A stretch of 45,390 nt of DNA, taken from the NCBI GenBank assembly GCA_964554155.1, contig CAZKNL010000002.1:11629-57018 (forward strand), in the 5' to 3' direction. The position numbers and the translations under genes are program-made. The notes beneath the pieces were generated by a model. That model had not been told where the DNA came from and searched no databases. It saw nothing but the letters and a program-made list of their open reading frames with translations. Positions within the stretch are counted from its first letter, which is position 1. Each line of letters opens with the position of its first letter. The stretch comes from an uncultured Pseudomonadales bacterium. Lineage in GTDB: Bacteria > Patescibacteriota > Microgenomatia > UBA1400 > PJMF01. This document shows, in pieces, positions 3,261 to 45,390 of this stretch.

Positions 3261-3773
3261 CTAGTTTGAAAATTCGACACTCAATGCTGTCAATGCAACA
3301 CCAATGGCATCAATCGTATCGTCGAGTTCGACCTGGACTCGTTGTTTGAGTTCTGCTGAAACTGGGCCAATCTGGAGCATGACCATTTTACGCATTGCAG
3401 TTTTGTCGGCGTGTCCATTACTAGTCACAGCAAGCTTGATCGTGCTGGGGTTAAACTCTTTGATCGAGACTTCGTGTCGGAGTAAACAACTCAGCATAAT
3501 ACCGCGCGCTTCAGCAACAGGAATGGCAGTAGAAATATTACGAGAGACATAGAGCTGTTCAATCCCACTGATTTGGACTGGATACATGGTGAGCAGACCT
3601 TCCAAAAACTCTTCGATCTGTTTGTAACGCGTCAGGCGATCAAGTTTGTGATCTGAGGTGAAACAGCCGCAGTTGATCAAGAGTGGTTTTCTTTGCCGTT
3701 CTGTCATAACTGCCCAACCAACTCGATCAAAACCAGGATCTATTCCTAAAACAATTGATTCATTTTTTAACAT
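3261..3773 (-). CDS. ruvC: Crossover junction endodeoxyribonuclease RuvC
   Basis: VLGIDPGFDRVGWAV carries the catalytic Asp, and the RNase H-like fold ends in DDTIDAIGVAL. A GAGGTG Shine-Dalgarno lies 7 nt upstream of the ATG. Confidence 0.9.
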   Translation of the reverse strand: MLKNESIVLGIDPGFDRVGWAVMTERQRKPLLINCGCFTSDHKLDRLTRYKQIEEFLEGLLTMYPVQISGIEQLYVSRNISTAIPVAEARGIMLSCLLRHEVSIKEFNPSTIKLAVTSNGHADKTAMRKMVMLQIGPVSAELKQRVQVELDDTIDAIGVALTALSVEFSN

Positions 3774-4929
3774 GACAAGACACCTCTTGGAGTTGATCCA
3801 AAATGATTTGGGCTGTTTTTTGCCAGCTAAATTTTTTCAGCTGCGCACGTCCTTTTTTCAGCATGACTGCTCGCTGTTTGGCATTCATTTTCAAAATGTC
3901 AGCGAACACATCAGCAATTTCTTGCGGATGAGTTGGGGAAACCTGAAAGCCAGCTTCACCCACCACTTCTGGTAAGCTGGAAGTATTTGCTACTACTGGG
4001 ATGGTATTGGCAGCCATTGCTTCTAAAGGTGGAATGCCAAAACCCTCATACGTTCCGATCAGGACTGCGCAAGCACTTTTTTTGTAGAGTGCATGTTTTT
4101 GTTCTTCAGTGACATATCCTAAGAGATGAATCCGATCTTTGTACTCTGATGTATCTATTGCTTTGAGTGTTTGATCAGCCAGCCAGCCAACTTTACCAAC
4201 AATAACTAGGTGGGATTGTTCTTTTTTATCTTTATGTTTGTCGGATAAAATTTCAAAGGCTTTAACTAAACGCACTAAATTTTTTCTGGGTTGGAGGGTG
4301 CCGACATATAAAATATAAGGATCAGAAGTATTGATTATTTCTTTGACCCAGCTTGCTGGAACTTTATTCTCTGTATCAGTTTCTAACTGAGGTAAAGCAG
4401 GATAGGCCACAAAGACGTCTTCTGGTGAGCGTTTGTATTCTTGAAGTATGGCGTCACAAGTAAACTGGCTGATGGTGAGTACTTTTTGGGCATGTTTAAC
4501 GCTATAGCGGGTCCACTCTTTGAGTTGGAGGGAGTCTTTTTTGCGAAATTGATCAGGAAACTTTAGAAATCCCAAATCCATGACTGAAGAAATGTATGGG
4601 ATAACGCTATACCGGGGTGCGTAGTGGCCTGGTGTGAAAAAAGCATTATATTTTTCTTGATGCATGAACAGGTGAAGTGGCAAACCAAGTTGGGTCCAAA
4701 ATGGTTGTGGAGCGATCACTTGATACTGCCAGCCTTTGCGTGCTTTTGGTAAATCATTGACTGGTGGATTGGCTAATAAAACTGTCCATTCATACTCGTT
4801 ACTATGTTCGGAGTCATCGCTTTTGCGGGTCAGTTTTTCTAAAGCATGAAGAACTTCATAGGCGTAGACATTACTGCCAACCCGTTGCTGAGTGTTTGCT
4901 TCATTGCCGTCAACTGCAAAGTGATACAT
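3760..4929 (-). CDS. GT4-family (GT-B) glycosyltransferase
   Basis: C-terminal signature YVGTLQPRKN ... SACAVLIGTYEGFGIPPLEAMAANTIPVVANTSSLPEVVGEAG, which is an E-x7-E type motif. Its 3' end overlaps the ruvC start by 14 nt. Confidence 0.85.
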   Translation of the reverse strand: MYHFAVDGNEANTQQRVGSNVYAYEVLHALEKLTRKSDDSEHSNEYEWTVLLANPPVNDLPKARKGWQYQVIAPQPFWTQLGLPLHLFMHQEKYNAFFTPGHYAPRYSVIPYISSVMDLGFLKFPDQFRKKDSLQLKEWTRYSVKHAQKVLTISQFTCDAILQEYKRSPEDVFVAYPALPQLETDTENKVPASWVKEIINTSDPYILYVGTLQPRKNLVRLVKAFEILSDKHKDKKEQSHLVIVGKVGWLADQTLKAIDTSEYKDRIHLLGYVTEEQKHALYKKSACAVLIGTYEGFGIPPLEAMAANTIPVVANTSSLPEVVGEAGFQVSPTHPQEIADVFADILKMNAKQRAVMLKKGRAQLKKFSWQKTAQIILDQLQEVSCHVKK

Positions 4930-4934
4930 CTTTT

Positions 4935-6080
4935 TTATTGTAGAGAGTTTTGGATTGCTTTTCGATAGACTTTAGTCGTTTCCTCAGCCACTCTCTCCCA
5001 GCTAAAAAGTTGTAAACGAAGAATCATTTTTTGGAGGCGAAGACGTTGGACATCCAGATTTTCGTTTAAGACGGTAGTAATGCCAGTACGAATACTCTCC
5101 ACGGAACTGGGATCAACTAATTCCGCTGCATTGCCAGCCACTTCTGGCATAGAGGAAGTATTTGAAGTCACTACTGGTGTCCCAGCATGAAACGCTTCTA
5201 AAATTGGTAAACCAAATCCTTCGTAGAGACTTGGGTACAACAATAATTCTGCTTCACCATACAGCACGGCTAGTTCTTTGTCGTTCACTTTGCCTAAAAA
5301 GCGCAACTCTGGACTTTGCAGGGCTTCTTTGAGTTGTGCAGTATCATCCCAGCCAGCCGGACCGGCGATCAGCAGTTGAACATCTGAACGCAATGGCCAC
5401 CATGCCTCAATTGCTCGGCGGAGATTTTTTCGCGGTTCACGGGTTCCGACACAGAGAATATATGGCTTATCCAACTGCAGTTTTTGCTTGATCATCTCTG
5501 ATTCATCTTCAGTCATATTTTGGCTGATACGAAGAGACTCCATTGGCAGACTCTCGTAGACAACGTGGACATCAGCTGGGTCGAACTGCAACAGTTCGAC
5601 GACATCTTTTTTAGTTGCTTGGCTGACGGCGATAATTTGGGCACGGTGTTTGTGTAGTTCTGACCAAGAACGTTGGTGCATGGCTAAGATTTTAGGATGA
5701 GCTGTTTCAGGGAACTTCAAAATTGCTAAGTCGTGAATGGTCGAAACTAACGGTAAATTTTTATCAGGTGGCTGTAGCCAGTCCCAAGAATGGAAAACTT
5801 CGAGGTCAGGAAAAATTTTGGAAATGGGATTAATGTGCAGAGTATTCCAGAAAATTTCTTGCATTGTGGGGGGTAAACTTTGAATCGTAAAGGTGTGACG
5901 GAGGGAAAGTTGGGTTACCTGGTAGGCAAAACGTTCAAGACGTACTTTTTGTCGCCAACTGGCTCCATACAGACGAAGGTGAATATCTGGATGAGCCGTT
6001 AAAGCACGGACTAAATTAGCAGTATACCGAGAAACGCCACGGTCATAAATCACTGGTGTAATATCGATCCCAACGCGCAT
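4935..6080 (-). CDS. GT4-family (GT-B) glycosyltransferase
   Basis: CVGTREPRKN ... LYPSLYEGFGLPILEAFHAGTPVVTSNTSSMPEVAG. I chose the start at ATG 6080 (MRVGIDITPV), because the longer ORF to 6140 would overlap the upstream gene. Confidence 0.85.
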   Translation of the reverse strand: MRVGIDITPVIYDRGVSRYTANLVRALTAHPDIHLRLYGASWRQKVRLERFAYQVTQLSLRHTFTIQSLPPTMQEIFWNTLHINPISKIFPDLEVFHSWDWLQPPDKNLPLVSTIHDLAILKFPETAHPKILAMHQRSWSELHKHRAQIIAVSQATKKDVVELLQFDPADVHVVYESLPMESLRISQNMTEDESEMIKQKLQLDKPYILCVGTREPRKNLRRAIEAWWPLRSDVQLLIAGPAGWDDTAQLKEALQSPELRFLGKVNDKELAVLYGEAELLLYPSLYEGFGLPILEAFHAGTPVVTSNTSSMPEVAGNAAELVDPSSVESIRTGITTVLNENLDVQRLRLQKMILRLQLFSWERVAEETTKVYRKAIQNSLQ

Positions 6081-6087
6081 AGAGTTC

Positions 6088-7614
6088 CTAGTATTCTGAA
6101 AAACCAATGATTTGTCCAGTCCGAGCATACACGCGCACAATACCTAAAGGTGTTTCTGGCGTAATTCGGTCTACTTCTTGATATCCAAATCGCTCTAAAT
6201 CTTTTTCTATCAAATGATTTGGATCAGTTAAGTCTCTGAGGTAGTCAAACACTAAGATGTACTGTGCATCAGCTAAGTTTTTGAGTCTGAGTCGATCGAT
6301 TGCAGCAGGATCTGCACTTAAGACAAAGACACCTGTTGATGCGGTAGGAAAGTGAGTCTCTCGGTTGTACCACTTCCAACTAGCAAACTGATCAGGAAAA
6401 GCAAACACAACAATACTATTTTGAGATTGGTACTTTTGGGTGATGAGTTGATGAATTCCGCGCCAGTCCTCGCGATGGTACTTTGGTTGAGTGTAGTAGG
6501 ACAGTGCCGAAAAAAGATTAATACCCAACAGGAGTAACCAACAAGTGCCTGCCGCAATTACTAAGGCAATATGTCGTTGATTTTTTTGACTAAGAAAGTG
6601 TTCTGCCAAGCTGGTCAGAAAAAGATAAAAAGCTGGTAGAGCAAACAGTACTCTTTTAGGTTGCAAAATTGGGATCCAAAAAGAAATCACCCACGCGAAC
6701 ACAATTGGCAACACTCCCCAACAGAAAAGCATAATTTGTTGTGGCTGGAACAGCTTTTTGTGTTGAAGCCATCCCAATATTCCAAAACCACTAACCAATA
6801 GTCCACCAGTTACGAGAAAAAAAGAATCAGCGGACAAATCAAGCACCCCATAAACAAACTTGCCAATGACTAAAGCGAACGACTTTAGTTGGCTAAAACT
6901 GACAATTGCTTGCCATCCGGGGAAAGTCGTGCGGAGTTGTTGACCAGCATGAAGTTGATTAAAAAATGAAGGAATCCAGGGAGCGAAACTCAGACAGACA
7001 AGGATCAAAGCAAGGCCGATCTTATTCAGAGCGCGTCTGTTTCGGTGGTATGTCCACCCTAACCAAATCACTTGGCCGAGCAAAACAAAAAAGTAGAGAT
7101 ACGAACTATACAAACCTAAACCGCTCACTACTCCCCATAAAGTGAGGAAGTTGAGTTTTTTAAGTTGTTGTTGCTGAAATTTAAGCAAAAATAACCAGCT
7201 TAATCCAGCAAACATCGTTGGCAAACTATAGGGACGCAGTTCCTGGGAATAAAAAATGTGAAAAGAAGAAGTAGCAAGTAGCAGACCAGCTAACCAGCCG
7301 GTTCGACGAGAAAAAAGTTGTTGACCAAGTTGAATGGTTAGCCAAACAGTAATAATTCCTGGGATCAAGGCTACTCCAAATCTTAACCAAGCTTCTGAAC
7401 TGGAGACTTTTAACAATCCAAAAACCAGGAAGTGAATCAACGGTGGTTGGAAATCATCTCTGATTTGCAGCTGTTGGTTAAAAGGACGACTGCTTTCTAA
7501 AGCTTGAGCTGCTTCGTCAAGCCAAAATGAGCTGCCTAACAAAGGCAATCGTAAAACTGTGGCAAAAAGCAAGATCACGAAAGTCACACCAGATGTAAAA
7601 GAAAGTTTCTTCAT
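6088..7614 (-). CDS. GT-C-fold membrane glycosyltransferase, ArnT/PMT_2 (GT39/GT83)-like
   Basis: About 12 TM helices. The first-loop motif is FWLDEAAQALES followed by DDFQPPLIHFLV, which matches the classic DE...PPL pattern of PMT_2 proteins. There is a soluble C-terminal domain of about 110 aa. Confidence 0.72.
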   Translation of the reverse strand: MKKLSFTSGVTFVILLFATVLRLPLLGSSFWLDEAAQALESSRPFNQQLQIRDDFQPPLIHFLVFGLLKVSSSEAWLRFGVALIPGIITVWLTIQLGQQLFSRRTGWLAGLLLATSSFHIFYSQELRPYSLPTMFAGLSWLFLLKFQQQQLKKLNFLTLWGVVSGLGLYSSYLYFFVLLGQVIWLGWTYHRNRRALNKIGLALILVCLSFAPWIPSFFNQLHAGQQLRTTFPGWQAIVSFSQLKSFALVIGKFVYGVLDLSADSFFLVTGGLLVSGFGILGWLQHKKLFQPQQIMLFCWGVLPIVFAWVISFWIPILQPKRVLFALPAFYLFLTSLAEHFLSQKNQRHIALVIAAGTCWLLLLGINLFSALSYYTQPKYHREDWRGIHQLITQKYQSQNSIVVFAFPDQFASWKWYNRETHFPTASTGVFVLSADPAAIDRLRLKNLADAQYILVFDYLRDLTDPNHLIEKDLERFGYQEVDRITPETPLGIVRVYARTGQIIGFSEY

Positions 7615-7622
7615 TTCTATTC

Positions 7623-7631
7623 ATCATAGCA
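7623..7631 (-). promoter_or_regulatory. Extended -10-like element TGCTATGAT, 8 nt upstream of ATG 7614
   Basis: The reverse complement of ATCATAGCA is TGCTATGAT. There is no Shine-Dalgarno between it and the ATG. Confidence 0.4.
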
Positions 7632-7650
7632 GCATCTTGTCGCATTCGTG

Positions 7651-7656
7651 TATACT
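7651..7656 (+). promoter_or_regulatory. -10-like element TATACT, 7 nt upstream of ATG 7664 (uxs)
   Basis: The sequence reads gtgTATACTtttccagATG with no Shine-Dalgarno. Confidence 0.4.
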
Positions 7657-7663
7657 TTTCCAG

Positions 7664-8662
7664 ATGCAAAGCTACTTCCAAAATAAAAAAGTACTACTGA
7701 CTGGTGGAGCAGGATTCATTGGTTCTCATCTGGCTGAACAACTCGTTCAGCTCGGTGCCCAAATCACTGTTGTTGACAACTACCTTACAGGTTCTCCCGA
7801 AAATTTAGTTGGCTTAGCAGTCCAACAGATTGAAGCAGATGTCAGTCAACCTGTAGTCAACTATCTTCCAGCAAATTATATTCCTGATTTCATTCTCCAC
7901 TTTGCTTCGCCAGCCAGCCCAGTTCACTACCAAGTGCACCCAATTGAAACATATTCTGTGAATAGTTTTGGCACCCATTATCTTCTGCAGTTCTTGTTAA
8001 AGGTGAATCCGCAAGGTCGTTTCCTGTTTGCCAGTACCTCGGAAGTGTATGGTGATCCGCTGATCCATCCTCAATCAGAATCCTACTGGGGAAATGTGAA
8101 TCCAAATGGTCCCCGCTCACACTACGATGAAGCCAAACGCTTAGGCGAGACAATCTGTGGCGTTCACCAAAAACTAGGAATAGATGTGCGGATTGTGCGC
8201 ATCTTTAATACCTATGGTCCGCGGATGGATATCAACGATGGACGAGTAATTCCCAACTTAATTTCTCAAGCGTTGAAACATCAACCATTCACTATTTATG
8301 GTCAAGGCAAGCAAACTCGTTCGTACTGCTACATTAGTGACTTGGTTGATGGACTGCTTCGTTTTGCCAGTCAAGAAGGCCTCAGTGGGCAAACAATCAA
8401 TCTCGGTAATCCTGAGGAAAGAACTGTGCTGGAAACTGCTCAAGTGATTCAACAGGTTGTTAATCAAGCTACAGCTGTCGAAGAACAACTTCCCCTAGAA
8501 TACAAACCACTTCCTCAAGATGATCCAACTCGTCGGCAGCCTGACATTACTAAAGCCAGACAGTTGTTAGACTGGCAACCAAAAGTCAATTTTCAAGAAG
8601 GTTTACTCAAAACAATTGAGTACTTTCGCCGCAAAAACACTAGTACTGAAACCAGCGCGTAA
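7664..8662 (+). CDS. uxs: UDP-glucuronate decarboxylase (UDP-xylose synthase), extended SDR
   Basis: GGAGFIGSHL Rossmann motif, then ASTSEVYGDPLIHPQSESYWGNVNPNGPRSHYDEAKRLGE, which is a near-consensus UXS block with catalytic T/S-E and YxxxK. I chose the start at ATG 7664 (MQSYFQNKKVLLTGG). The ORF from 7559 would overlap the divergent gene. Confidence 0.85.
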   Translation: MQSYFQNKKVLLTGGAGFIGSHLAEQLVQLGAQITVVDNYLTGSPENLVGLAVQQIEADVSQPVVNYLPANYIPDFILHFASPASPVHYQVHPIETYSVNSFGTHYLLQFLLKVNPQGRFLFASTSEVYGDPLIHPQSESYWGNVNPNGPRSHYDEAKRLGETICGVHQKLGIDVRIVRIFNTYGPRMDINDGRVIPNLISQALKHQPFTIYGQGKQTRSYCYISDLVDGLLRFASQEGLSGQTINLGNPEERTVLETAQVIQQVVNQATAVEEQLPLEYKPLPQDDPTRRQPDITKARQLLDWQPKVNFQEGLLKTIEYFRRKNTSTETSA

Positions 8663-9900
8663 ATAAATACCACTGCTCGACTGACCACTCTAACTACCAC
8701 GGCTGCCAGTAATCCACCCGTGGGAATAAAGAGTGCGCCTCCACCAATTTGAATAACAAGCAGCAGCAGTGTACTGATTGAAAAGTAATCAGCGCTTTCC
8801 TGCAGATACATGACTGCTCCTAAAGGAATAGTTGCACAGAAAAAAAGAGCGGCCAACACAAGACCAATTAAAGCTGGCGTAGCAGATTGATAATTTTCAC
8901 CTAAAGTAAAAAAAACTAGCTGTCCGGCAAACGGTACAAATATCAGAAAACTGGCAATTGTCGCCACTAACAATACGGGTACTTTTCGTAAGTATGCTGA
9001 TAAATCTGGCCATGCATGATAACGACTGACGCGAGCGTTTAAGACACCAGCGACTGATTGGCCAATCAATGTAATTGCCAGAGCAAATTGAGAAACACCA
9101 CTGTATAAGCCAGTTTCAGTTGCGGTGGTATATCGTTGTAGCAAAAAGATATCAACGTACTCCATCATACCCAGGCCAACGGCCATGACTACGGCGTGAG
9201 TGGCAATTCGCCAGAATCGGCGCACGACTACAGCATCTAGAGTAAAAATGGCACTGATGCTAAACGACTTCTTTAGCTCAGAAAATCTAGCAGTCAGGAG
9301 ACCAAATATGACACTCACGATAGGTGTTAAGTAAAACCAGAGGAATAAAGTTGGTAAAGTGATTGTTGGTAAAGACAGAAAAATACCAGCGACTCCGAGT
9401 TTTAGAACAGCTTGCAGAACCATCATCGTTACTGCTCGATCAAATCGATGAATGGCTTGATGATAGGTAATAACCTGTTCGAATACGGCAGTCACTGAAG
9501 CACCGAGAATCGAGAAGTATAAAAGTTGTGGGTAATGTAACAGTAAAAAGTTGTTCAAAATGCCGGTAACTACAAATCCTGCTACTGCACCAAGTAAAAT
9601 ACTTAAGCTCAATAATCCAAGGCTGTGTTGAAAAAGACGTTGGACTTGAGATGTTTTTTGATGAACAGGGCCAATTAATTTCTGGAGAGCAATCGGCAGA
9701 CCAAATGTTTGTAGTTTTGACAAAATTGTTAAAAAGCCAACACTCAACCAGAACTCGCCGAACAGAACAGGTCCAACTTTCCGCGAAATAAGAAGCAAAG
9801 CTACTGCCGAAATACCGTAGGCAATAAAGTTGCCCAAGCTAAAAAAAGCCGATTGTCTGAGTCCTTGAGAACCAGTAATTGCTTTAAGGCGAGAAAACAT
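8593..9900 (-). CDS. Wzx-like oligosaccharide flippase (MOP/PST superfamily)
   Basis: 435 aa with about 12 TM helices. The N-terminal pattern LGNFIAYGISAVALLLISRKVGPVLFGEF is typical of polysaccharide-biosynthesis flippases. It is co-operonic with the ABC exporter. Confidence 0.62.
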   Translation of the reverse strand: MFSRLKAITGSQGLRQSAFFSLGNFIAYGISAVALLLISRKVGPVLFGEFWLSVGFLTILSKLQTFGLPIALQKLIGPVHQKTSQVQRLFQHSLGLLSLSILLGAVAGFVVTGILNNFLLLHYPQLLYFSILGASVTAVFEQVITYHQAIHRFDRAVTMMVLQAVLKLGVAGIFLSLPTITLPTLFLWFYLTPIVSVIFGLLTARFSELKKSFSISAIFTLDAVVVRRFWRIATHAVVMAVGLGMMEYVDIFLLQRYTTATETGLYSGVSQFALAITLIGQSVAGVLNARVSRYHAWPDLSAYLRKVPVLLVATIASFLIFVPFAGQLVFFTLGENYQSATPALIGLVLAALFFCATIPLGAVMYLQESADYFSISTLLLLVIQIGGGALFIPTGGLLAAVVVRVVSRAVVFIYALVSVLVFLRRKYSIVLSKPS

Positions 9901-11454: not shown

Positions 11455-11460
11455 TTCTGG

Positions 11461-11466
11461 ATTATA
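11461..11466 (-). promoter_or_regulatory. Consensus -10 TATAAT, 6 nt upstream of ATG 11454 (wzt short form)
   Basis: The minus strand reads GGGTATAATCCAGAAATG. Confidence 0.4.
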
Positions 11467-11480
11467 CCCACAGAGAGTCA

Positions 11481-11489
11481 TGATATGCT
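11481..11489 (+). promoter_or_regulatory. Extended -10-like element TGATATGCT upstream of the methyltransferase operon
   Basis: TGATATGCT lies 32 nt before ATG 11522. A GGTGGT Shine-Dalgarno-like stretch at 11505-11510 sits in the predicted leader. Confidence 0.3.
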
Positions 11490-11521
11490 AGACTTCCCAT
11501 CTGTGGTGGTCATGTCAATAT

Positions 11522-37974: not shown

Positions 37975-38807
37975 CGATCCTTTGATAGTTGAGCGTCTTT
38001 TTTCCACATCTTCATAAACTCAAGTTCTTTGGTGTAGTATTTCTCTTCTAAACTTGGGTGCTGTTGCAGTTCCCAAAGTTGAACATACACAAGATAACGA
38101 TTCATTGCTTGGATGCCTGCTTCAATGATCCCTTCTATCCCATCTTTTCGACCAGACCAGAGAAATGCGCGACGAATAAACTCCATGACTGTTTTACGAA
38201 ATAATACCCAAACAGTTACTGGTGGTGTATTTGCTTCAAACAGTAATCGCGCTTCAACTGGAGTCCAAGCTGCTGTTTTATACAAACCATCGATCGTATT
38301 CCGGTGAGTCAGATGAAATAAGCTACTATGTAAGCGCGTCACTGCACCATTGAAAACTGGACTTTCATGAATATCGCCCTTCCAACCAGCTAATGCTTTT
38401 CTGCGGAAGATCCGGATTACGTATTCTTTTTCCCACCCTCCATGAGTGAAGAACTTGCCATACATCATATTTTCGCGGTGAATTTCTAGCGCGTTTGTTG
38501 ATGTTGTCTCAATCTGCACCAAAATTTCTTTGGCGAGGCGAGGCGTAGCGCGTTCGTCGGCATCAATGTAAAACAGCCAATCTGTGTTGCAATGACGCAG
38601 TGCCTCTGTTCGCCTTTCAGCGAAAGAAGACTGCCGACTCTGAATCACTTTTGCTCCCAATCGCTCTGCCAGTCCAACAGTTTGATCCCGTGAGTTAGTA
38701 TCAACAACTATAATTTCTTGACACCACCGTAATGTTTCAATGCAGTTGGCCAGCATTGCTTCTTCGTTTTTGGTCAAGATAATAGCGGTAATGTTTGGTA
38801 CAGACAT
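37971..38807 (-). CDS. GT2 glycosyltransferase, WaaE/KdtX-like small subgroup (paralog B)
   Basis: ITAIILTKNEEAMLANCIETLRWCQEIIVVDTNSRDQTVGLAERLGAKV ... YIDADE ... HGGWEKEYVIRIF ... GRKDGIEGI. I prefer the ATG at 38807 to the TTG at 38816. Confidence 0.8.
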   Translation of the reverse strand: MSVPNITAIILTKNEEAMLANCIETLRWCQEIIVVDTNSRDQTVGLAERLGAKVIQSRQSSFAERRTEALRHCNTDWLFYIDADERATPRLAKEILVQIETTSTNALEIHRENMMYGKFFTHGGWEKEYVIRIFRRKALAGWKGDIHESPVFNGAVTRLHSSLFHLTHRNTIDGLYKTAAWTPVEARLLFEANTPPVTVWVLFRKTVMEFIRRAFLWSGRKDGIEGIIEAGIQAMNRYLVYVQLWELQQHPSLEEKYYTKELEFMKMWKKDAQLSKDR

Positions 38808-38818
38808 AATAAGCAAAG

Positions 38819-39787
38819 TTAATACACAGCTTGTTTTCCCATACGCCCAACTGCCCAGTCAAGAGCTGCTCGACGTAAAACAGCTTGAGACTGAAAAACT
38901 TGCAGTGTTGCCAACTTGAGAATTCTTAAGTAAAACCAGAAAAGTCTGAGAACTTGTGTCAGACTGCTTTTTTTCTGTCCACCTAAAAAGTGCATATGGG
39001 CATACTTCCAAAAGAAAAACAGCCGATTACGAGTTTGATAGTATTGATGCAGCACAGAACCAGCTCCTCCAGATGAGCCGGCATTTTTATGCCAAACGAC
39101 AGCTTCTGGAACAAAGTAGAGTTGATATCCAGCTTGGATGATTCTCAGACTCCAATCGGCATCTTCGAGGTATAAAAAGTAACGTGGATCAAGTGTGCCA
39201 ACTCTCTCTATGACTGTGCGAGGAAGTAATATACAACACCCCGTTGCAAACTCAGTTTGGTCAGTTTGGTCAAACTGTCCTCGGTCAACTTCATCCACCC
39301 CGCGATGGAAAGCATCTAAGTTTGCCCAGTCGATACTGCCACCAGCGAACCATAAGACCTTGCCTCGCTGTTCAGGTTTGTAACTTTTTTTGTGAAACTC
39401 ATACCCCGGAGAAAAGTAAATCTTAGGAACTGCTATACCTAACTTTGGTTGTGCTTGGGCAACTGCGATCAACTTCTCTAAAAAATCTGGTTTAACTATT
39501 GTGTCACTATTCAATAAGACAACGTAATCGGGATCTGTTTCACGAACTGCGATGGAAATTCCTAAGTTATTTCCACTTGTAAATCCTAAGTTCGCATCAC
39601 TGCGAATAATTTGGGTGTTTCGAGGTAAGTCTTTTTCTGGAATCTGTAGTATTTCTTTTGAACCATTATCAACGACATACGTATAAGTATGCATTCCAGT
39701 ATGTTCAATTTTTGCTAGAGAGGATAAACACTCTTTTGTTTCGGCTTCGGTGTTGAAATGAACAACCACAATCGCAACAGTGATCAT
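38819..39787 (-). CDS. GT2 glycosyltransferase (WbbL/rhamnosyltransferase-like subgroup)
   Basis: VAIVVVHFNTEAETKECLSSL ... VVDNGS ... LLNSDTIV ... LYLEDADWSLRIIQAGY. Confidence 0.8.
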   Translation of the reverse strand: MITVAIVVVHFNTEAETKECLSSLAKIEHTGMHTYTYVVDNGSKEILQIPEKDLPRNTQIIRSDANLGFTSGNNLGISIAVRETDPDYVVLLNSDTIVKPDFLEKLIAVAQAQPKLGIAVPKIYFSPGYEFHKKSYKPEQRGKVLWFAGGSIDWANLDAFHRGVDEVDRGQFDQTDQTEFATGCCILLPRTVIERVGTLDPRYFLYLEDADWSLRIIQAGYQLYFVPEAVVWHKNAGSSGGAGSVLHQYYQTRNRLFFFWKYAHMHFLGGQKKSSLTQVLRLFWFYLRILKLATLQVFQSQAVLRRAALDWAVGRMGKQAVY

Positions 39788-39831: not shown

Positions 39832-40749
39832 CTACCACTGAAATTTGCGACGAAACTGCCACATCAGTTTTGTGAATCCACCAGAATTTTGAATATAGTA
39901 ATCAGCTATCCAATAGCGGAGTTGGCGGAGAGATTGATCTAACATCTTGAGGATCTCATAAGTAGTGTGTTGTTCGGCAAAATGTCCAACTTGCCAACGT
40001 TTCAACTCTACTGAAACTTGATACATTGACTGTAAATATGACAACGCTAGACCATGCTCACCATCCAAATATCCTTTTTCTGCAAAAAAACGGCGGCTAA
40101 ACTCATTAGTAAATGTCTGTGAAATATTTAGATCTTCTAGTTTTGGTTGTGTACTATCTGAAGATTTCTGCTGATCTTGTTCAACTTTAATGGTCGTGTA
40201 GCGATTCAATCGTTCTAAGAACTGTTCGACGGTTTGATAGTTGTAGTGAGTAATCGCTGATTCTGGCCGTGCTGGGAGATGAGTTGCCGTTCCGCTAATC
40301 ACTGGTTGAGCATGAATTTTTTCTGGCCAGTTCACTTTGCCTGTTTGGAAAAAACGGAGTTGGTAATCTGGCCACCAGCCTGAGTGTTCAATCCATTTGC
40401 CAAAAATGACGTTTTGACGAGGAAGATAGTAAACATCAGTCGTTGTACTCGCAACCATTAATTGGCGGAGTTCTTGTTGCAAAGTAGCTGGTACTTCTTC
40501 GTCAGCATCAACAATCAGTGTCCAATCTGTTTTGACTTGTTGGAGGGCAAAGTTTCGGGCTGGCTCGACATAACCAACATCAGCGTGTTTAATGACTGTC
40601 GCACCATGATGTTTAGCGATCTGACGAGTGTCATCAGTACTCTCCATGTCAATCACGATCACTTGGTCAGCAAACTTGAGAGACTTCAAGCATCTTCCCA
40701 AAGTTTCAGCAGCATTTTTGGTGTGGACAAGAGCAGTTAGTTTTGCCAT
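39832..40749 (-). CDS. GT2 glycosyltransferase, WaaE/KdtX-like small subgroup (paralog C)
   Basis: LTALVHTKNAAETLGRCLKSLKFADQVIVIDMESTDDTRQIAKHHGATV ... IVDADE ... HSGWWPDYQLRFF ... EKGYLDGEHGL. Confidence 0.8.
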   Translation of the reverse strand: MAKLTALVHTKNAAETLGRCLKSLKFADQVIVIDMESTDDTRQIAKHHGATVIKHADVGYVEPARNFALQQVKTDWTLIVDADEEVPATLQQELRQLMVASTTTDVYYLPRQNVIFGKWIEHSGWWPDYQLRFFQTGKVNWPEKIHAQPVISGTATHLPARPESAITHYNYQTVEQFLERLNRYTTIKVEQDQQKSSDSTQPKLEDLNISQTFTNEFSRRFFAEKGYLDGEHGLALSYLQSMYQVSVELKRWQVGHFAEQHTTYEILKMLDQSLRQLRYWIADYYIQNSGGFTKLMWQFRRKFQW

Positions 40750-40789: not shown

Positions 40790-42574
40790 ATGTCACAACG
40801 TACTCATGGTCTTCTGGTTTTAGTTGTTCTTTTAGCTACCTCTGTGTTTTTAAGAGTGATTTTTTTACGAACTACTCCTGCTATTTTTAGCCATGATGAA
40901 GTCCACTATATTGATGAAGCTCAATCAATTGCTCTCAGTGGTAGCGATCTGACTGGGAGTTGGCGACCATGGTATCTTCGTCCCACGAGCGTGCTCTATG
41001 CAGAGCTTCCCAGTACGATTATGTCTCCAGGGAGTTTGCTTTTTAGTGATCCATTCTGGAAAGCACGAGCAGTTTCAGTTTTTCTTGGTGTGTTACTTCC
41101 AGTGGTGATTGCCGGAATCGCTTGGAGTTTAACGAGAAAGAAAGAGGTTTTTTGGACCACTTTGATTGTCAGTCTTTTTAATCCGTGGATTTTTCAATTT
41201 TCACGATTGAGCTTTGATCCATTGTTTAGTTTGTTTTTTTATTCATTGGGCATATTCTGTCTGATCGCTTTGCGTCCACGTTGGCGAATGATCAGTCTGT
41301 TGCCATTTTTTCTGGGTTTTTTCCAGTATCAAGGACTCAAAATTATTTTCTTACCGTTGGTAGTGATAACAACTGGCTACGTCATTTGGCGTGATTGTTC
41401 AGGAACTTCACTTACTCTTAAGAGTGTAGTTAAAACAATTCGCTCCCAACTGTGGGATGTCTTGCTTGTAGCCATTTTTGGACTTGCTTTATTTGGTTTT
41501 TATATTGTGCGCTTACCATCACAGAATGCGGGTCAACGACTTCACGACATCCTCTTTTTCAATGAAACGTATCTTTCTCAACATGTAAATGATCAACGAC
41601 GGATTGCCTTAGCTGATCCAGTAGTTCAAGTTTCGACGAATAAAGTGACCGTGATCATTCAAGAATTTCTGATCAAATACTTTCAAACGTTTGATTTGAG
41701 TCAACTCTTTGTTCGAGGAGAATCTGTTCGCAATCCTTTCTCAGTGTGGACAAGAGGGATCTTTTTCCCGATTGATGTATTGTTAATTGGAGCGGCTATC
41801 TTTGCTTTGGCTACGCAAAAAAAATGGCGGAAAGAAGGGTTGTTGTTAATTGGATTTGTCCTAATTTCTCCTTTACCCGTTGCTCTCAACAGTATTGACA
41901 CTTGGGTGATGTTCCGGGGATCGTGGCTCGTTGTTAGCCTTTTGTTGATGATTGGCATTGGTGCTTGGCAACTCATTCAAGCATGGCCTAAGATTTTGCT
42001 TGTTGGGGTGGGTGTTGTGTACCTTATTACAGTCGTCAGTTTTACTCATGAATACTTTATTCACTATCCAATCTACAGCACCAAGGGCAGTGGTTTTGCT
42101 GAACGAGTTCTATCCAACTATATTCAGCGTCTACCAAAAGATAAAAAAGTAGTTGTCTTAGTTGATGAATCACGTTTTGTCTTTGAGAGTTATCTGGCGT
42201 ACAACAACTTAGTCACCCAAGAAAACTTACCAGCCATTCACAAAGCGATGACAGAAAGTGTCTATAAGCTGGGGAATGTGGAGTTTACTACAGATTGCCT
42301 CGACCAGAAACTGGTGGCAGATGGCACGATTGTCATTAATAGCAGCGTCAATGTGACCTGTGATCAGAAACCTTTTCAACTCTCCAACACGCATTACGCC
42401 AAAATTGCTTCGTTGATCGATAATGGCGCCCAGTTCACCATCTACATTGATTCAATTTGTGTGAAATATGCCCTCAGACCCTATACTCATGTAACTAACC
42501 GTAAATTTCTCGATGCAGAAAAACTGTCAGAGCACGATTTTTGTGATGGTTTACTCAGCAAGCCTATTGAGTAA
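40790..42574 (+). CDS. GT-C-fold membrane glycosyltransferase, divergent ArnT/PMT-like
   Basis: 594 aa with about 12 TM helices. The first loop has FSHDEVHYIDEAQSIAL, which carries two DE motifs. There is a soluble C-terminal domain of about 170 aa with Cys residues. Confidence 0.62.
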   Translation: MSQRTHGLLVLVVLLATSVFLRVIFLRTTPAIFSHDEVHYIDEAQSIALSGSDLTGSWRPWYLRPTSVLYAELPSTIMSPGSLLFSDPFWKARAVSVFLGVLLPVVIAGIAWSLTRKKEVFWTTLIVSLFNPWIFQFSRLSFDPLFSLFFYSLGIFCLIALRPRWRMISLLPFFLGFFQYQGLKIIFLPLVVITTGYVIWRDCSGTSLTLKSVVKTIRSQLWDVLLVAIFGLALFGFYIVRLPSQNAGQRLHDILFFNETYLSQHVNDQRRIALADPVVQVSTNKVTVIIQEFLIKYFQTFDLSQLFVRGESVRNPFSVWTRGIFFPIDVLLIGAAIFALATQKKWRKEGLLLIGFVLISPLPVALNSIDTWVMFRGSWLVVSLLLMIGIGAWQLIQAWPKILLVGVGVVYLITVVSFTHEYFIHYPIYSTKGSGFAERVLSNYIQRLPKDKKVVVLVDESRFVFESYLAYNNLVTQENLPAIHKAMTESVYKLGNVEFTTDCLDQKLVADGTIVINSSVNVTCDQKPFQLSNTHYAKIASLIDNGAQFTIYIDSICVKYALRPYTHVTNRKFLDAEKLSEHDFCDGLLSKPIE

Positions 42575-42609: not shown

Positions 42610-44100
42610 CTAGACTTCTGGTGGCATCACACTTGGTTGTTTCACTCTCAAGCTGTGAATCTCAGCAAATAACTTCTGCTGCCCAACTCCAATTAAAACT
42701 ACTCCATAAGTAACTGCCATCGCTGCTGCTCCAACACCAGCGTACAGCAGATGTGTATTCATTAATGGTAAAAATCCAACTCCCACTGCAGCCATGGCGC
42801 CGCTTGCCACAAGTTGACGCCATACCTGGTCCCACACTTGAATGTTGACAATCTTTTTAACATAAAAAATCGGTAAAACAGAGCTGAAAGAAATCACAAA
42901 AGCGGCAATTGCGACACCATTAAACCCAAACAAAAAGACACCAATTGGGGTCAATACCCAGGTCAAAGCTGTCCACATAATCATTAACTTGAGGGTTTGA
43001 TTAATTTTGCCAATAGCACTGAGTGTATTTGTAAGTGGGGTCGAGATTGCACTCCAGCCAATACTGAGGGTAAATAGAGCAAAGGTCAGTAAAGCTGGCT
43101 GCCATTTGTGATACTTTAGAATTAAGTGTGTAATCGGCACAATCAAGACAGACATTCCGACTAACATCGGAAAAATCAGTAAGGAAATAAAGAAGAGAGT
43201 CTTCTCAATCGCCTTTTTTAGTAAATTTTTGTCATGTTGCAGCCGTGAGTAGGTTGGAAAAGTAATGGCAATCACATTTTGAACAGTTAACTGGTAGGGC
43301 ATCATTGACCACTGTTTAGCAAAGCTAATATAGCCAAACTCACCTAGTGGTAAGAAAATTGCTAAAACTAGGTAAAATAATTGATCTTTAATTCTGGCCA
43401 GAAAATCATTAAGTTGGAACTTGAAACCAGTTCCGACCATCTCTTTGAGTGCTGTTCGATCTAAAGAAAAACCCAGTTGCCAACGTTGCAATCCATACAT
43501 GACCATCACACCAATAATTGAGCGACTCAGAATAGCAATAGTGTAGGAATGGACTCCATATCCTTTGATCGCAAAGAAAACTAACAACCCACTGTATACA
43601 AGTTGTTCAACGATTTGCGGTAGCACTAACTTGGAGAAGTCGAGTCGGCGTTCCAACATCACCGAAGGAATGGTCTTCAAACTGGCTAAGGGAAACGAAA
43701 AACCGAGTGATAAAAGTACCAGTGCCCCAGCGTATCCAATTTTCGGCTCTAAAATCTTGCTGGTAAAAAGAACTACTGTTATTAGAAAAATACACCACGA
43801 TAAAATTTGCTGGACAGTGAAAACAGTTCGATACTCAATCTCAGAAGGATTTTCTTTTTTTTGAATTAAGGCTGATGCTAAACCAATGTCAGAAAAGAAC
43901 GTTAATAAACCAATAATTTGGGTGACAAATCCATAGATTCCAAACTCTTGAATTGTTAAGTACGCTCCTAAAATAGCTGAAGCAGCCAAGCCAATTCCGT
44001 ACAGTACCATTGTTCGCGCCATGTACGAAAAAGCTCCAGAGACTGTTTTCTTCTTCAGCTCATGAACTGCGTTTGGCTGTTCTGTTTGAGAGGCTGTCAT
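42610..44100 (-). CDS. Wzx/PST-family polysaccharide flippase (MOP superfamily)
   Basis: 496 aa with about 14 TM helices. The N-terminal pattern KKKTVSGAFSYMARTMVLYGIGLAASAILGAYLTIQEFGIYGF ... FSDIGLASALIQ is typical of PST transporters. Confidence 0.78.
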   Translation of the reverse strand: MTASQTEQPNAVHELKKKTVSGAFSYMARTMVLYGIGLAASAILGAYLTIQEFGIYGFVTQIIGLLTFFSDIGLASALIQKKENPSEIEYRTVFTVQQILSWCIFLITVVLFTSKILEPKIGYAGALVLLSLGFSFPLASLKTIPSVMLERRLDFSKLVLPQIVEQLVYSGLLVFFAIKGYGVHSYTIAILSRSIIGVMVMYGLQRWQLGFSLDRTALKEMVGTGFKFQLNDFLARIKDQLFYLVLAIFLPLGEFGYISFAKQWSMMPYQLTVQNVIAITFPTYSRLQHDKNLLKKAIEKTLFFISLLIFPMLVGMSVLIVPITHLILKYHKWQPALLTFALFTLSIGWSAISTPLTNTLSAIGKINQTLKLMIMWTALTWVLTPIGVFLFGFNGVAIAAFVISFSSVLPIFYVKKIVNIQVWDQVWRQLVASGAMAAVGVGFLPLMNTHLLYAGVGAAAMAVTYGVVLIGVGQQKLFAEIHSLRVKQPSVMPPEV

Positions 44101-45390
44101 AGGTTGCTATTCCAAATACCATCAAAACACTCAAGAGAGAAATGGTATCACTGATTGCGCGGACTGGGGTACTGCCAAACCGAACGCTAATTAAGCGCTC
44201 ACCTACCGGAGCTTTAAAAGCGATCGTTCCTAACTCCCCGTCACTTTTCCACTCAATCGGTTTGCCATCGACAGCCACTTCCCAACCAGGAAAGCTGGCA
44301 ATCATCACATTAAACGTAATCGGACTAGTAAATGTAGTTTTGAACAGTTTCTCGTGCATCCGATCAACCAGTACTTCCACTTGTTTTTCTACACCTGCTG
44401 GGACTAAAAAAAGTTCCTTGCGTGGTGGCAGTTGGTCAGACATCGTTTTAGGAATGTAATCAGGTAAAATTTGACTCATTTGTTGACGAATTTTATCTTC
44501 GTCTGAGTAGTACAAACCAGTTGGATCTTCGAGGTATTTTTCCGGTCGGAAGTACTTCCAGTTGCCAGCTAAGATGACGCCGATCAATACCACAGCAAGA
44601 GCAATTCGGTATCTTTTAACTGTCACCAACGTCACTGCCATTCCCCCTAAAAGTGCCACCAATAGACTCATCACTGATAACCACCTCCACGGAAACTGAA
44701 TTGTTGCTAAAAGTGGAATGGCATCCCAGATTGGTTTTGATCGGAGCAATGTCATAAAAGCACTTCCTACCAAAAGTGCTGTCACAACTGCTGAGAAAAA
44801 TAAACGAGAAATTTTACGATCTCGCCCAGATTTTTGGCTTCTCCATTTCCAGACCTGCCACGCCGTGATCAGCCATCCCAACCCAAATATCACTAATCCA
44901 ATGATTTGCCCATACCCCAAGAAAAAAGAAATTGTGTCATCTGGCCCCCATGCAGAACCGCCATATCCCCAATTGGCAAGAAAAAATTGACGGATGTAGA
45001 GAAAGTGATTTGCGTAGTGGAAGTAGACGGAAAAAATCGCCTCGATTTTGGTGAAGTCTTTTTCGGCTAGGGCGGGAAATAGATAAAAGGCAGATAGACC
45101 AATTGCCACTATATACGCCATCGCGGTTTTGCAGAGAGACAGAATGGGTTGAGAAATTTCTTTGCGGTAGATCAAAAAGTAAGCCACCCCAAACAGTACA
45201 CTAACTGGCACAAACATCATGGTTGTTAAGTTATGACTTAACATTAAAGTCACTAAACCGCCCAATAACACCCAAAAACCAACTTTTTTGCGCTGGGTCA
45301 ATAACACAATTCCCAGGAGCACCCATGGTAAAGCCATCATTGCCCAGGCCTCACTGAGTGCGCCGCGAACAAATAAATTGAGTGCACGAT
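44060..45390 (-). CDS. Polytopic membrane protein, PTPS-related/COG5617-like, 5'-truncated by window edge
   Basis: It shares IQFPWRW and the C-terminal FPGWEVAVDGKPIEW with 24318..26024. The reading frame stays open upstream of the annotated ATG (45340) through to the window end, so the true N-terminus lies outside the window. Confidence 0.5.
   Translation of the reverse strand, partial: RALNLFVRGALSEAWAMMALPWVLLGIVLLTQRKKVGFWVLLGGLVTLMLSHNLTTMMFVPVSVLFGVAYFLIYRKEISQPILSLCKTAMAYIVAIGLSAFYLFPALAEKDFTKIEAIFSVYFHYANHFLYIRQFFLANWGYGGSAWGPDDTISFFLGYGQIIGLVIFGLGWLITAWQVWKWRSQKSGRDRKISRLFFSAVVTALLVGSAFMTLLRSKPIWDAIPLLATIQFPWRWLSVMSLLVALLGGMAVTLVTVKRYRIALAVVLIGVILAGNWKYFRPEKYLEDPTGLYYSDEDKIRQQMSQILPDYIPKTMSDQLPPRKELFLVPAGVEKQVEVLVDRMHEKLFKTTFTSPITFNVMIASFPGWEVAVDGKPIEWKSDGELGTIAFKAPVGERLISVRFGSTPVRAISDTISLLSVLMVFGIATYDSLSNRTAKRSS

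Follow-up and report, generated by a model that had tools for sequence, protein, structure and literature searches.

A glycan gene block encoding eleven GT-C-lineage membrane proteins in a Patescibacteria contig is a mosaic of three separately conserved modules

How a surface glycan would be assembled by many membrane glycosyltransferases with no recognisable initiating, polymerising or ligating enzyme encoded beside them, and whether their genes serve one pathway, are questions raised by a 45,390-nt stretch of contig CAZKNL010000002.1 (hereafter the window). Coordinates are window positions, with the strand given as (+) or (-). The window is tiled by 38 open reading frames (ORFs), with intergenic gaps of <=55 nt and start and stop codons that often overlap. 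The 33 close-packed genes from 3760 to the window end (>42 kb) are all glycan-related, which bears out the near gap-free 42-kb glycan block of an earlier, preliminary description of this DNA. The left 3.7 kb carries genes for an EamA transporter (29-997, left of ruvCAB) and a WcaF-like acetyltransferase, then ruvB, ruvA and ruvC. Eleven polytopic proteins of the block belong to glycosyltransferase C-fold (GT-C) lineages, and the block is a mosaic of three modules (M1, M2 and M3), each conserved separately with other neighbours elsewhere. RuvB is 83% and 80% identical to its counterparts in two Patescibacteria metagenome-assembled genomes, and the next relatives are labelled Paceibacterota or Pacebacteria. 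By this sequence the source is placed as a Paceibacteria-type Patescibacterium, in line with the earlier guess of a small-genome uncultivated bacterium. The GT-C proteins of the window are singleton clusters at 90% identity.

M1 (3760-8662) adjoins ruvCAB and comprises two family 4 glycosyltransferases (GT4), a PMT_2-type GT-C and a UDP-glucuronate decarboxylase (UXS). In 14 of the 18 closest loci this gene set directly adjoins ruvC-ruvA-ruvB, with amino-acid identities of 31-73%, and the loci diverge beyond UXS. M2 (approximately 9915-21237) comprises a Wzm/Wzt exporter, a methyltransferase, a large family 2 glycosyltransferase (GT2) and an Arn/Pse-like arm, namely a 4,6-dehydratase-like short-chain dehydrogenase/reductase (SDR), an aminotransferase, a GNAT enzyme, a PgfS/ArnC-like GT2 and a rare GT-C with a carbohydrate-binding module (CBM)-like domain. 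The ten-gene set recurs on a JGI contig (L082) at 47-77% identity, including a 651-aa homolog of the rare GT-C, in the gene order of the window except for the ABC pair, which differs in order and strand. M2 has a GC content of 36.9%, M1 one of 42.7% and M3 one of 40.8%, and GC at third codon positions is as low as 26-28% in 12443-15632; the low GC of M2 fits a separately acquired cassette. Insertion of M2 between a conserved Wzx and SDR was considered and found unsupported, as 8593-9900 shares only 26-29% identity with the Wzx that adjoins the SDR in L085 and L086. On L082, the stretch after M2 (11963-20642) encodes a GH44 protein with dockerin, a PMT/PMT_2 protein, a NUDIX protein, a P-type ATPase and a Y1 transposase.

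M3 extends from 22152 to beyond 45390 and comprises a GalE-like SDR, nine GT-Cs of four lineages, two GT4s, five GT2 domains and a Wzx flippase. Over ~22 kb, L083/L084, L085 and L086 preserve 14-16 of its genes in colinear order (50-76% identity). Colinearity in L085 and L086 runs with the same strand pattern from the GalE-like SDR (22152) to the GT-C 40790-42574; that in L083/L084 runs from the PTPS-related gene at 24318 to the second PTPS-related gene at 44060. The Wzx gene 42610-44100 comes next in L085 and L083. L085 and L086 are parts of contigs of 1.23 and 1.17 Mb, and a reduced M3 is present in a 1.41-Mb contig (L089). After M3 in L088 (a 1.23-Mb contig; 15138-21341) are genes for a GT2, a 511-aa double-GT2 protein, a 525-aa PMT_2 protein, a 748-aa Pfam-less protein and a methyltransferase; GT-C-rich regions in relatives may be even larger. 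The single island of the preliminary description is thus contiguous here, and its three separately conserved modules do not bear out a single pathway.

Two fusion links pair specific M3 enzymes. The 841-aa protein 34355-36880 (-) joins a GT2 (residues 1 to ~300) to a PMT_2-type GT-C with eight transmembrane helices from residue 305. Its GT2 domain is of the Glyco_tranf_2_3 type with a weak DPMS match, and its C-terminal 550 residues are a paralog of the PMT_2 family (E 1e-45). L083-L087 retain the fusion, at 821-832 aa. L089 has two separate genes in its place, one for a 291-aa GT2 that matches residues 1-289 at 50.5% identity and the other for a 562-aa GT-C that matches the C-terminal 554 residues at 45.8%, with an unrelated gene between them. 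The second link concerns the adjacent genes 24318-26024 and 23077-24312, which correspond to the two halves of fused 917-951-aa Patescibacteria proteins (P0152 and ~14 others). P0152 (924 aa) shares 45% identity with 24318-26024; its C-terminal half shares the same percentage with 23077-24312 (E 4e-97). Each link is evidence that the two enzymes concerned are coupled, physically or functionally. By analogy with GtrB/GtrX, ArnC/ArnT and GacI/GacL, the GT2::GT-C fusion would couple donor synthesis to donor use.

Setting MOP flippases and ABC permeases aside, a hydropathy scan located eleven polytopic proteins, at the positions implied earlier. The scan was a crude Kyte-Doolittle one, by which helix number is probably underestimated; each protein gave 6-10 peaks, compatible with the 7-13 transmembrane helices of GT-C enzymes. 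All eleven belong to GT-C lineages, on the evidence of Pfam matches, paralogy, hhalign and one confident model, in agreement with the estimate of about eleven made beforehand. None resembles a transporter, which had been named as the check on that estimate. Direct Pfam support above the gathering score was obtained for three of the eleven (6088-7614, 27895-29547 and 23077-24312). A candidate acidic motif (DE, EE, DD or HDGE), with a predicted catalytic role, lies directly after the first transmembrane helix in eight: WLDEAA (6088-7614), NRDEAA (27895-29547), YWDEAA (29544-31331), YWEEAA (32613-34358), TWDEAA (34355-36880), SHDE..IDEA (SHDEVHYIDEA, 40790-42574), YIDDY (YIDDY/DD, 19288-21237) and THDGENH (24318-26024, invariant). 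A ninth was assigned to 44060-45340 through its full-length L083 ortholog, the region itself lying outside the window. In the 451-aa protein 31358-32713 the candidate residue is the invariant E62, farther from the first helix, and no such motif was identified in the PIG-V-like 23077-24312. By analogy, these proteins would use polyprenyl-phosphate-linked sugars at the membrane's outer face.

Seven of the GT-Cs are assigned to the PMT_2 superfamily by sequence. In M1, the 508-aa protein 6088-7614 (-) scored 39.7 bits to Pfam PMT_2 (cut-off 26.1) and has syntenic orthologs that are 31-59% identical; its relation to the M3 PMT_2 paralogs is confined to the N-terminal 132 columns, and a PDB sequence search with it gave no match. 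In M3, the 550-aa protein 27895-29547 (-) scored 35.1 bits against the same cut-off. The proteins 29544-31331 (-; 595 aa) and 32613-34358 (-; 581 aa) and the C-terminal part of the fusion 34355-36880 are its paralogs (phmmer E 1e-22 to 1e-67). Of these, 29544-31331 matched 32613-34358 at 1.5e-67 and 27895-29547 at 3e-30, and scored just 13.6 bits to PMT_2; the remaining M3 paralogs had no direct match and join through paralogy and hhalign. The divergent 594-aa protein 40790-42574 (+) was aligned to the four paralogs by hhalign (98.8%, E 1.3e-16, 471 columns) and is 56-63% identical to its orthologs in L083, L085 and L086. The best PDB match of the M3 PMT_2 paralog profile was ArnT (5ezm), at a marginal E of 0.061.

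The seventh member, 19288-21237 (+; 649 aa, M2), is a rare, divergent PMT_2-superfamily GT-C with a C-terminal CBM-like beta-sandwich. Eight homologs were found among 5.8e9 clusters by word-indexed search, and two representative clusters below 1e-30 among 1.84e9 by profile search. Its remote matches place it: of 84 aligned, 40 carry Pfam PMT_2 and ~49 carry TPR repeats, and hhalign of the family against these remote matches gave 99.7% and E 1e-26, with D35-D36, invariant across the eight-sequence family, falling on their near-invariant DD. A direct relation of this family to the M3 PMT_2 paralogs was rejected (hhalign 2%); the link runs through other PMT_2 and TPR proteins instead. A PDB search with the family gave no match. 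An AlphaFold2 model built from the eight-sequence alignment was weak (predicted local distance difference test, pLDDT, 64), and a fold search with it matched the C-terminal beta-sandwich alone. In this low-confidence model the domain resembles CBM6, CBM16 and CBM51. The last ~60 residues of the beta-sandwich were matched, in a profile search, by six separate stretches of a 2852-aa protein (P0233), so the domain also exists as a repeat in a giant protein.

The other four GT-Cs, all in M3, belong to PTPS-related, PIG-V-like and Pfam-less lineages. The 411-aa protein 23077-24312 (-) is PIG-V/Gpi18-like, with 26.4 bits to Mannosyl_trans2 (PF04188; cut-off 22.4) over profile positions 13-202 of 443. 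Its neighbour 24318-26024 (-; 568 aa) is a PTPS-related, AftD-like GT-C with >613 homologs, whose precomputed annotations include PF10131 (PTPS_related) and PF11847 (GT-C_AftD). When 45 members of this family (41-58% identical) were scanned, 11 matched PF10131 (best 3.8e-16) and 7 matched PF11847. A second PTPS-related GT-C, 44060-45390 (-), is a paralog of 24318-26024 (E about 1e-20; 6e-21) and is cut by the window end. PF10131 was not matched by either window protein itself, and a PDB search with the family gave no match. The ORF list gives the second gene 426 aa from 45340, and a short, N-terminally degenerate GT-C at 44060-45340 was ruled out: the frame is open to 45390, and the L083 ortholog has 571 aa with 'HVHDYTH' near its N terminus. 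For the same two reasons the right border of the island lies outside the window.

The 451-aa protein 31358-32713 (+) gave no Pfam or NCBIfam match even at E<=10; the same search of the eight unclassified polytopic proteins gave nothing usable. It has 102 homologs, none with a Pfam domain. Those with a named source are all Patescibacteria/Pacebacteria, except one probably mis-binned 'Vitreimonas' record. The AlphaFold2 model was confident (pLDDT 93, predicted template modelling score 0.90), and its best PDB fold matches by Foldseek were all GT-C enzymes of the ALG/PimE type: GPI-MT-I (4.8e-5), ALG6 (1.4e-4), PimE (2.3e-4), ALG3 (template modelling scores 0.61/0.70) and also PIG-U. In 66 aligned sequences E62, Y63, P65 and D146 are invariant, and a profile of these 66 homologs found no PDB sequence. 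By its modelled fold, the protein founds a Pfam-less family with an ALG3/ALG6/PimE/PIG-M-like GT-C_B architecture. Its 3' end overlaps that of the convergent gene 32613-34358 (-) by 101 nt; similar convergent overlaps occur in the orthologous blocks (~77 nt in L083, from tblastn match coordinates; 98 nt in L085 and 137 nt in L086, from called genes). A homolog in a distant relative (L090, 11259-19904) lies beside genes for a phosphoribosyltransferase, a GT2, a methyltransferase and a YfhO-like 784-aa protein; a WecA/MraY-family gene and a UbiA-family prenyltransferase gene are in the same stretch. By analogy, this gene set is reminiscent of decaprenyl-phospho-arabinose or ribofuranose donor pathways.

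The families named in the preliminary description were largely recovered. Its six ArnT/PMT-like proteins were borne out, with the count rising to seven because the protein it had left unclassified (19288-21237) belongs to the PMT_2 superfamily. Its PIG-V-like protein is 23077-24312, above the gathering score. The paralogy of its two PTPS-related proteins stands, and PF10131 is matched by family members, not by the window proteins themselves. For its GT87-like protein (31358-32713) a fold resemblance was found, equally good to PimE, GPI-MT-I, ALG6 and ALG3, and a sequence-profile match to GT87 (PF09594) was not.

The soluble enzymes and exporters complete the modules. M1 encodes the GT4 proteins 3760-4929 (-; Pfam Glycos_transf_1 6e-32), with an ortholog beside ruvC in 14 Patescibacteria loci (41-67% identity), and 4935-6140 (-; 4e-30), its paralog (E 2e-37), with orthologs 42-73% identical. 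UXS, 7559-8662 (+), was identified by phmmer against human UXS1 (2b69; E 4.5e-94, 319 bits), with 125 bits for the best non-UXS PDB protein and 88 bits for ArnA; its orthologs are 54-63% identical. The listed GTG start overlaps the neighbouring genes by 56 and 70 nt, and the real start is probably ~40 codons (~120 nt) downstream, since Pfam and PDB matches begin near residue 42-45. Next to UXS lies a gene for a 435-aa MOP/Wzx-like flippase, 8593-9900 (-; Polysacc_synt 33 bits, cut-off 28.2), with twelve hydropathy peaks (12 transmembrane helices).

The exporter of M2 consists of a Wzm-type ABC-2 permease, 9915-10742 (-; ABC2_membrane 1.8e-21), and a Wzt-type ATPase of short form, 10717-11481 (-; 254 aa, ABC_tran 4e-21), which lacks the C-terminal carbohydrate-binding domain. 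The Wzt counterpart on L082 (895-2145) has 416 aa with Wzt_C. An S-adenosylmethionine-dependent methyltransferase, 11522-12439 (+; Methyltransf_12/23/25), possibly a chain-end cap, is 66% identical to its L082 ortholog. The 878-aa protein 12443-15079 (+) has a GT2 domain at residues 384-615 and N- and C-terminal regions without assignment; its best PDB matches were chondroitin and heparosan synthases, in the GT2 domain only, and its L082 ortholog (898 aa) is 58% identical. The 208-aa protein 15006-15632 (+) weakly resembles the C-terminal half of a GT-B enzyme (Glyco_trans_1_4, 18.3 bits, under cut-off), and its L082 ortholog, 55% identical, has no Pfam match. A predicted polyprenyl-phosphate glycosyltransferase of PgfS/ArnC/GtrB type, 15635-16567 (-), has two C-terminal transmembrane helices and full-length NCBIfam matches to PgfS (2.7e-67) and ArnC (1e-50), both under the equivalog cut-offs. 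It is encoded 2.7 kb from the GT-C 19288-21237 and directly beside the genes for a DegT/PseC/ArnB-like sugar 4-aminotransferase (16564-17664, -; Pfam DegT 4e-117, NCBIfam PseC 8e-74, ArnB 1e-65), a PseH-like GNAT N-acetyltransferase (17667-18218, -; Acetyltransf_3 9e-24, PseH 5.5e-17) and an NDP-sugar 4,6-dehydratase-like SDR (18240-19232, -; Epimerase 9e-46; NCBIfam dTDP-glucose 4,6-dehydratase 1e-48, under cut-off).

Between M2 and M3 is a GT2 of the Glyco_tranf_2_3 type, 21259-22227 (-; Pfam 3.7e-16), a paralog of 38819-39787. M3 opens with the GalE-like SDR epimerase 22152-23069 (-; NCBIfam GalE 5.7e-60, under cut-off), 74% identical to its orthologs in L085 and L086. Its GT4 proteins are 26021-27139 (-; Glycos_transf_1 1.6e-23) and 36883-38007 (-; 1.2e-21). 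Three small soluble GT2s are paralogs of one another: 27117-27908 (-; Pfam 9e-18; weak AglJ and SunS matches), 37971-38816 (-; 1e-15) and 39832-40749 (-; 5e-15; best PDB relative GmaR, 2.5e-10). A further GT2, 38819-39787 (-; 1.3e-20), is of the Glyco_tranf_2_3 type. As polyprenyl-phosphate synthases, the M3 GT2s gave only weak, N-terminal matches (AglJ, DPMS, SunS and GmaR). The 496-aa Wzx/MOP flippase is 42610-44100 (-; Polysacc_synt_3 3.6e-45, NCBIfam MOP flippase 3.7e-32). Eight GT2 domains and four GT4 proteins passed Pfam thresholds; the eight GT2 domains counted earlier thus all stood, as did four of five GT4 units, the fifth being 15006-15632. The ArnC/GtrB-like enzyme, UXS, two further SDRs, the aminotransferase and GNAT were recovered by profile or phmmer, the two Wzx flippases and Wzm/Wzt by Pfam, and the methyltransferase was an addition to that earlier gene list.

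Several functions are missing. No PGT (phosphoglycosyl transferase), Wzy, O-antigen ligase, Wzz, GtrA or STT3 profile matched any window ORF, and neither did WbaP or WecA, as the earlier reading of no initiating PGT, Wzy or ligase had it. PGT, Wzy, Wzz and ligase profiles were also absent from the sequenced parts of the orthologous M3 block (~22 kb) and its visible flanks (L083, L085, L086 and L088). A Wzx/Wzy pathway does not fit, since two Wzx-type proteins are encoded in the window but no Wzy, Wzz or initiating PGT. Parts of an ABC-dependent pathway are present (Wzm, Wzt and the possibly chain-capping methyltransferase), with no WecA-type initiator in the window. The flippases are of the MOP/Wzx kind only, like GacK and WpsG variants of four-component systems, plus the EamA protein 29-997. 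Neither the window nor the orthologous blocks encode a pilin, S-layer protein or Ser/Thr-rich protein as a candidate acceptor. The GT-C content, together with the lack of PGT, Wzy and ligase in the M3 relatives as well, supports the preliminary view of a multi-step extracytoplasmic system unlike a standard O-antigen or capsule locus.

On balance, the genes are best explained as a mosaic surface-glycan cluster that probably acts by multicomponent transmembrane glycosylation of a wall polysaccharide or lipoglycan. Nucleotide sugars would be made in the cytoplasm, including UDP-xylose, a 4-acetamido-4,6-dideoxyhexose and a 4-epimer. GT2 enzymes would charge polyprenyl monophosphate with single sugars, or begin short oligosaccharides on it, and GT2 and GT4 enzymes would extend them. 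MOP flippases would carry the lipid-linked donors to the outer face, and Wzm/Wzt would export a methyl-capped backbone polymer. Outside, each GT-C would contribute a single sugar, linkage or block to an acceptor that would be a wall polysaccharide or a glycolipid-anchored lipoglycan, with donor use as in the lactococcal rhamnose-containing cell wall polysaccharide (Rha-CWPS), the streptococcal group A carbohydrate (GAC) or mycobacterial lipomannan/lipoarabinomannan (LM/LAM). PGT, Wzy and ligase would not be needed in such a scheme, which would account for their absence. The CBM-like domain carried by the M2 GT-C, and the presence of an ABC exporter, favour a polysaccharide as acceptor. The scheme is built on the gene content, families, modules and fusions observed, and presumes the donors, the order of steps, the acceptor and a single product from three modules.

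Precedent exists, in that lactococcal and streptococcal Rha-CWPS and mycobacterial LAM and arabinogalactan assembly run without Wzy or ligase. Mycobacterial LM/LAM is assembled comparably, by stepwise outer-face GT-Cs with polyprenyl-phosphate sugars. The GT-C_A and GT-C_B classes and the three-component systems have been summarised (PMC11127046). In the proposed lactococcal Rha-CWPS pathway, a GT2 (WpsA/B) rather than a PGT initiates, a Wzx (WpsG) serves as flippase, and polymerisation and attachment fall to GT-Cs (WpsH, WpsJ); the branch for the polysaccharide pellicle (PSP) begins without a PGT, and a GT2-initiated, Wzx-flipped, GT-C-attached glycan is combined with an ABC-exported backbone (PMC10821137).

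Each known system is matched in part. Rha-CWPS loci (Lactococcus cwps: Rgp rhamnan with WpsA/B-WpsG-WpsH/J; Streptococcus GacI/J/K/L) share with the island a monoderm-type envelope, an ABC-exported backbone, a GT2 in place of a PGT as starter of a glycan on polyprenyl monophosphate, and extra GT2-plus-GT-C side-chain systems (PMC10821137). They differ in that their GT-Cs are few and dispersed, whereas the island has eleven of four lineages together, among them PTPS-related, PIG-V-like and ALG/PimE-like ones, and a GT2::GT-C fusion; the island has no rhamnose-synthesis genes (rml) or recognisable GacJ/WpsB-type activator, and the likeness is without demonstrated sequence orthology.

The pathways for LM/LAM and arabinogalactan (PimA/B, Ppm1, PimE, MptA/B/C, EmbA-C and AftA-D) are alike in having cytoplasmic GT4 steps followed by many outer GT-C steps, a glycolipid acceptor that needs no PGT, and GT-Cs that carry carbohydrate-binding domains. 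The 451-aa protein has PimE as one of its best structural matches, and the PF11847 matches in 7 of 45 PTPS-related family members point the same way. In Actinobacteria these genes are spread over several loci, whereas the island is one block in a bacterium whose close relatives have ~1.2-1.4 Mb contigs. It also lacks recognisable inositol, arabinose (decaprenyl-phospho-arabinose) or mannose-donor genes, and the similarity is at the superfamily or fold level.

The M2 arm resembles the Arn (ArnB, ArnA, ArnC, ArnE/F, ArnT) and GtrA/B/X systems in its SDR, aminotransferase, N-acyltransferase, polyprenyl-phosphate GT2 with two C-terminal helices and PMT_2-superfamily GT-C. Unlike these, M2 would acylate by a GNAT and not a formyltransferase, and its SDR is 4,6-dehydratase-like and not a decarboxylase; ArnD, ArnE/F and GtrA are absent from the island, no lipid A acceptor is expected, and the GT-C is a rare one with a CBM-like domain. 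The eukaryotic ALG and glycosylphosphatidylinositol (GPI) pathways (ALG1/2/11, DPM1/ALG5, RFT1, ALG3/9/12/6/8/10; PIG-M, PIG-V) offer cytoplasmic GT-B and GT2 steps, a candidate MOP flippase and serial lumenal GT-Cs, with the 451-aa model matching ALG3, ALG6 and GPI-MT-I and 23077-24312 the PIG-V profile. This similarity is one of folds or profiles (10-15% identity), the island is that of a bacterium, and the window has no STT3/PglB/AglB-type oligosaccharyltransferase or ALG7/WecA-type initiator. The Pgf cluster of S. mutans (PgfS, PgfM1, PgfE, PgfM2) has in common with the island a PgfS-like GT2 donor synthase, a GalE-like epimerase and at least two outer GT-Cs per cluster (PMC11092751). PgfM1 and PgfM2 are of the YfhO type, whereas the island GT-Cs are PMT_2, PTPS-related, PIG-V-like and ALG-like; the island has no adhesin or acceptor genes, far more enzymes and an ABC exporter.

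Several points weigh against transmembrane glycosylation of a wall polysaccharide or lipoglycan by the whole cluster. No small flippase profile of the GtrA, ArnE/F or SMR type matched any ORF. Just one GT2 is recognisable as a polyprenyl-phosphate synthase, and it is located in M2, so that donor supply for the nine M3 GT-Cs is unassigned, the M3 GT2 matches being weak and N-terminal. The GT-C status of 19288-21237 depends on remote profile matches and a model at pLDDT 64. About 11.6 kb of the 57-kb source contig lies beyond the window and could encode a PGT or polymerase. The modules stand apart in other genomes and may therefore make separate products, and the sugars, donors and acceptor are all read from sequence.

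The separate occurrence of the modules leads to the alternative that survives best, though it is judged doubtful: that the island is a glycan-gene hotspot, with M1, M2 and M3 functionally independent, making different products and merely co-located, in which case the '42-kb pathway' would be an artefact. M1 with other neighbours (L002-L019), M2 near genes for a GH44 protein, a P-type ATPase and a transposase (L082), the differing flanks of M3 (L085, L086 and L088) and the lower GC of M2 all agree with this. Separate encoding is nevertheless compatible with one product, as the lactococcal rhamnan, PSP and Csd systems are encoded separately yet decorate one CWPS (PMC10821137). A recognisable lipid-donor synthase is encoded in M2 but not in M3, and the packing is tight, with no mobile-element borders, tRNAs or repeats between modules. 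Mobile-element borders were looked for and are unsupported: no tRNA gene or Rfam match was found in the window, repeats, promoters and terminators were at chance level, and no integrase lies at module edges.

Protein O-glycosylation is unlikely. By this account the targets would be Ser/Thr-rich stretches of pilins, S-layer or membrane-anchored proteins, glycosylated from polyprenyl-phosphate sugars by GT-Cs in the style of PMT, Pgf or YfhO, and other GT-Cs would extend the O-glycan outside. The seven PMT_2-superfamily GT-Cs agree with it, that superfamily including protein O-mannosyltransferases, as do the best scores of the lipid-donor GT2 against PgfS of the S. mutans protein-glycosylation cluster (2.7e-67) and of the small M3 GT2s against the protein- or peptide-glycosylating GmaR and SunS; yet the NCBIfam matches are all far under equivalog cut-offs, the lack of a candidate acceptor protein speaks against it, and Wzm/Wzt, the methyltransferase and the CBM-like domain of 19288-21237 indicate a polysaccharide. 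Known bacterial systems of this sort have one or two GT-Cs, not eleven. In favour of this account, PgfS and PgfM1 glycosylate Ser/Thr-rich regions outside the cell (PMC11092751), and pilin glycosylation has been proposed in Saccharibacteria (PMC11623550).

Conventional O-antigen or capsule-type loci, with PGT, polymerase and ligase or attachment enzyme outside the window and the GT-Cs as Gtr-type side-chain decorators, are very improbable. In their favour, the two Wzx and Wzm/Wzt are hallmarks of the two classical pathways, contig sequence remains beyond the window and a WecA/MraY-family gene lies near a 451-family member in the distant relative L090. Against them, PGT, Wzy and Wzz are absent from the orthologous M3 and its flanks, nine GT-Cs co-inherited in fixed order go far beyond Gtr-type decoration, and an O-antigen on lipid A is unlikely in Patescibacteria, which are thought to have a Gram-positive-like envelope with no outer membrane (PMC6744442).

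Within the favoured multicomponent scheme, a more specific role for M3 is put forward tentatively. Colinear in at least three further Patescibacteria organisms, M3 might be a lineage-specific ALG/LAM-like assembly line, using the Pfam-less 451-aa family and the PTPS-related/PIG-V pair, GT-C lineages in which no member is known to be characterised, and a GT2::GT-C fusion that would couple the making and using of a polyprenyl-phosphate sugar across the membrane. Its product might be a major envelope glycoconjugate of ultra-small, possibly episymbiotic cells, and a candidate for host attachment or phage defence.

Systems of this kind are already known; what is new is the setting in Patescibacteria, the density, the families and the fusion links. 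Within 42 kb there are eleven GT-Cs, and the block that encodes nine of these is conserved in relatives with ~1.2-Mb contigs. The envelope and surface glycans of Patescibacteria (candidate phyla radiation) are, to our knowledge, essentially uncharacterised, and cultivated members live attached to other microbes. An open-access literature search found no paper on GT-C clusters in Patescibacteria and, among the papers listed, came upon no description of a GT2::GT-C fusion. More than 42 kb of glycan genes here, and a ~22-kb block with nine GT-Cs kept in a ~1.2-Mb relative, argue for an important surface structure. If M3 does build a glycan without PGT, Wzy or ligase, the mycobacterial and lactococcal paradigm would extend to a third, deeply branching lineage. 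The new handles are a GT-C_B family of ~100 sequence clusters for which Pfam has no model, a very rare GT-C that bears a CBM-like domain, the pairing of specific enzymes by two fusion links and a modular map of co-travelling genes; they make heterologous reconstitution, comparative genomics and targeted glycomics of enrichments feasible.

The left border of the island is ruvC, and glycan genes are also found past ruvB. In the window this is the WcaF-like hexapeptide O-acetyltransferase 985-1584 (-; NCBIfam WcaF family 8e-32), a possible accessory gene that is kept beside ruvB in relatives. Across 985-3773 and the loci L002-L019, from many Patescibacteria, ruvC-ruvA-ruvB is followed by the WcaF-like acetyltransferase, and the whole is flanked on either side by glycan genes. 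In the relatives, these include a GT2 and a GT4 located 6-9 kb past ruvB.

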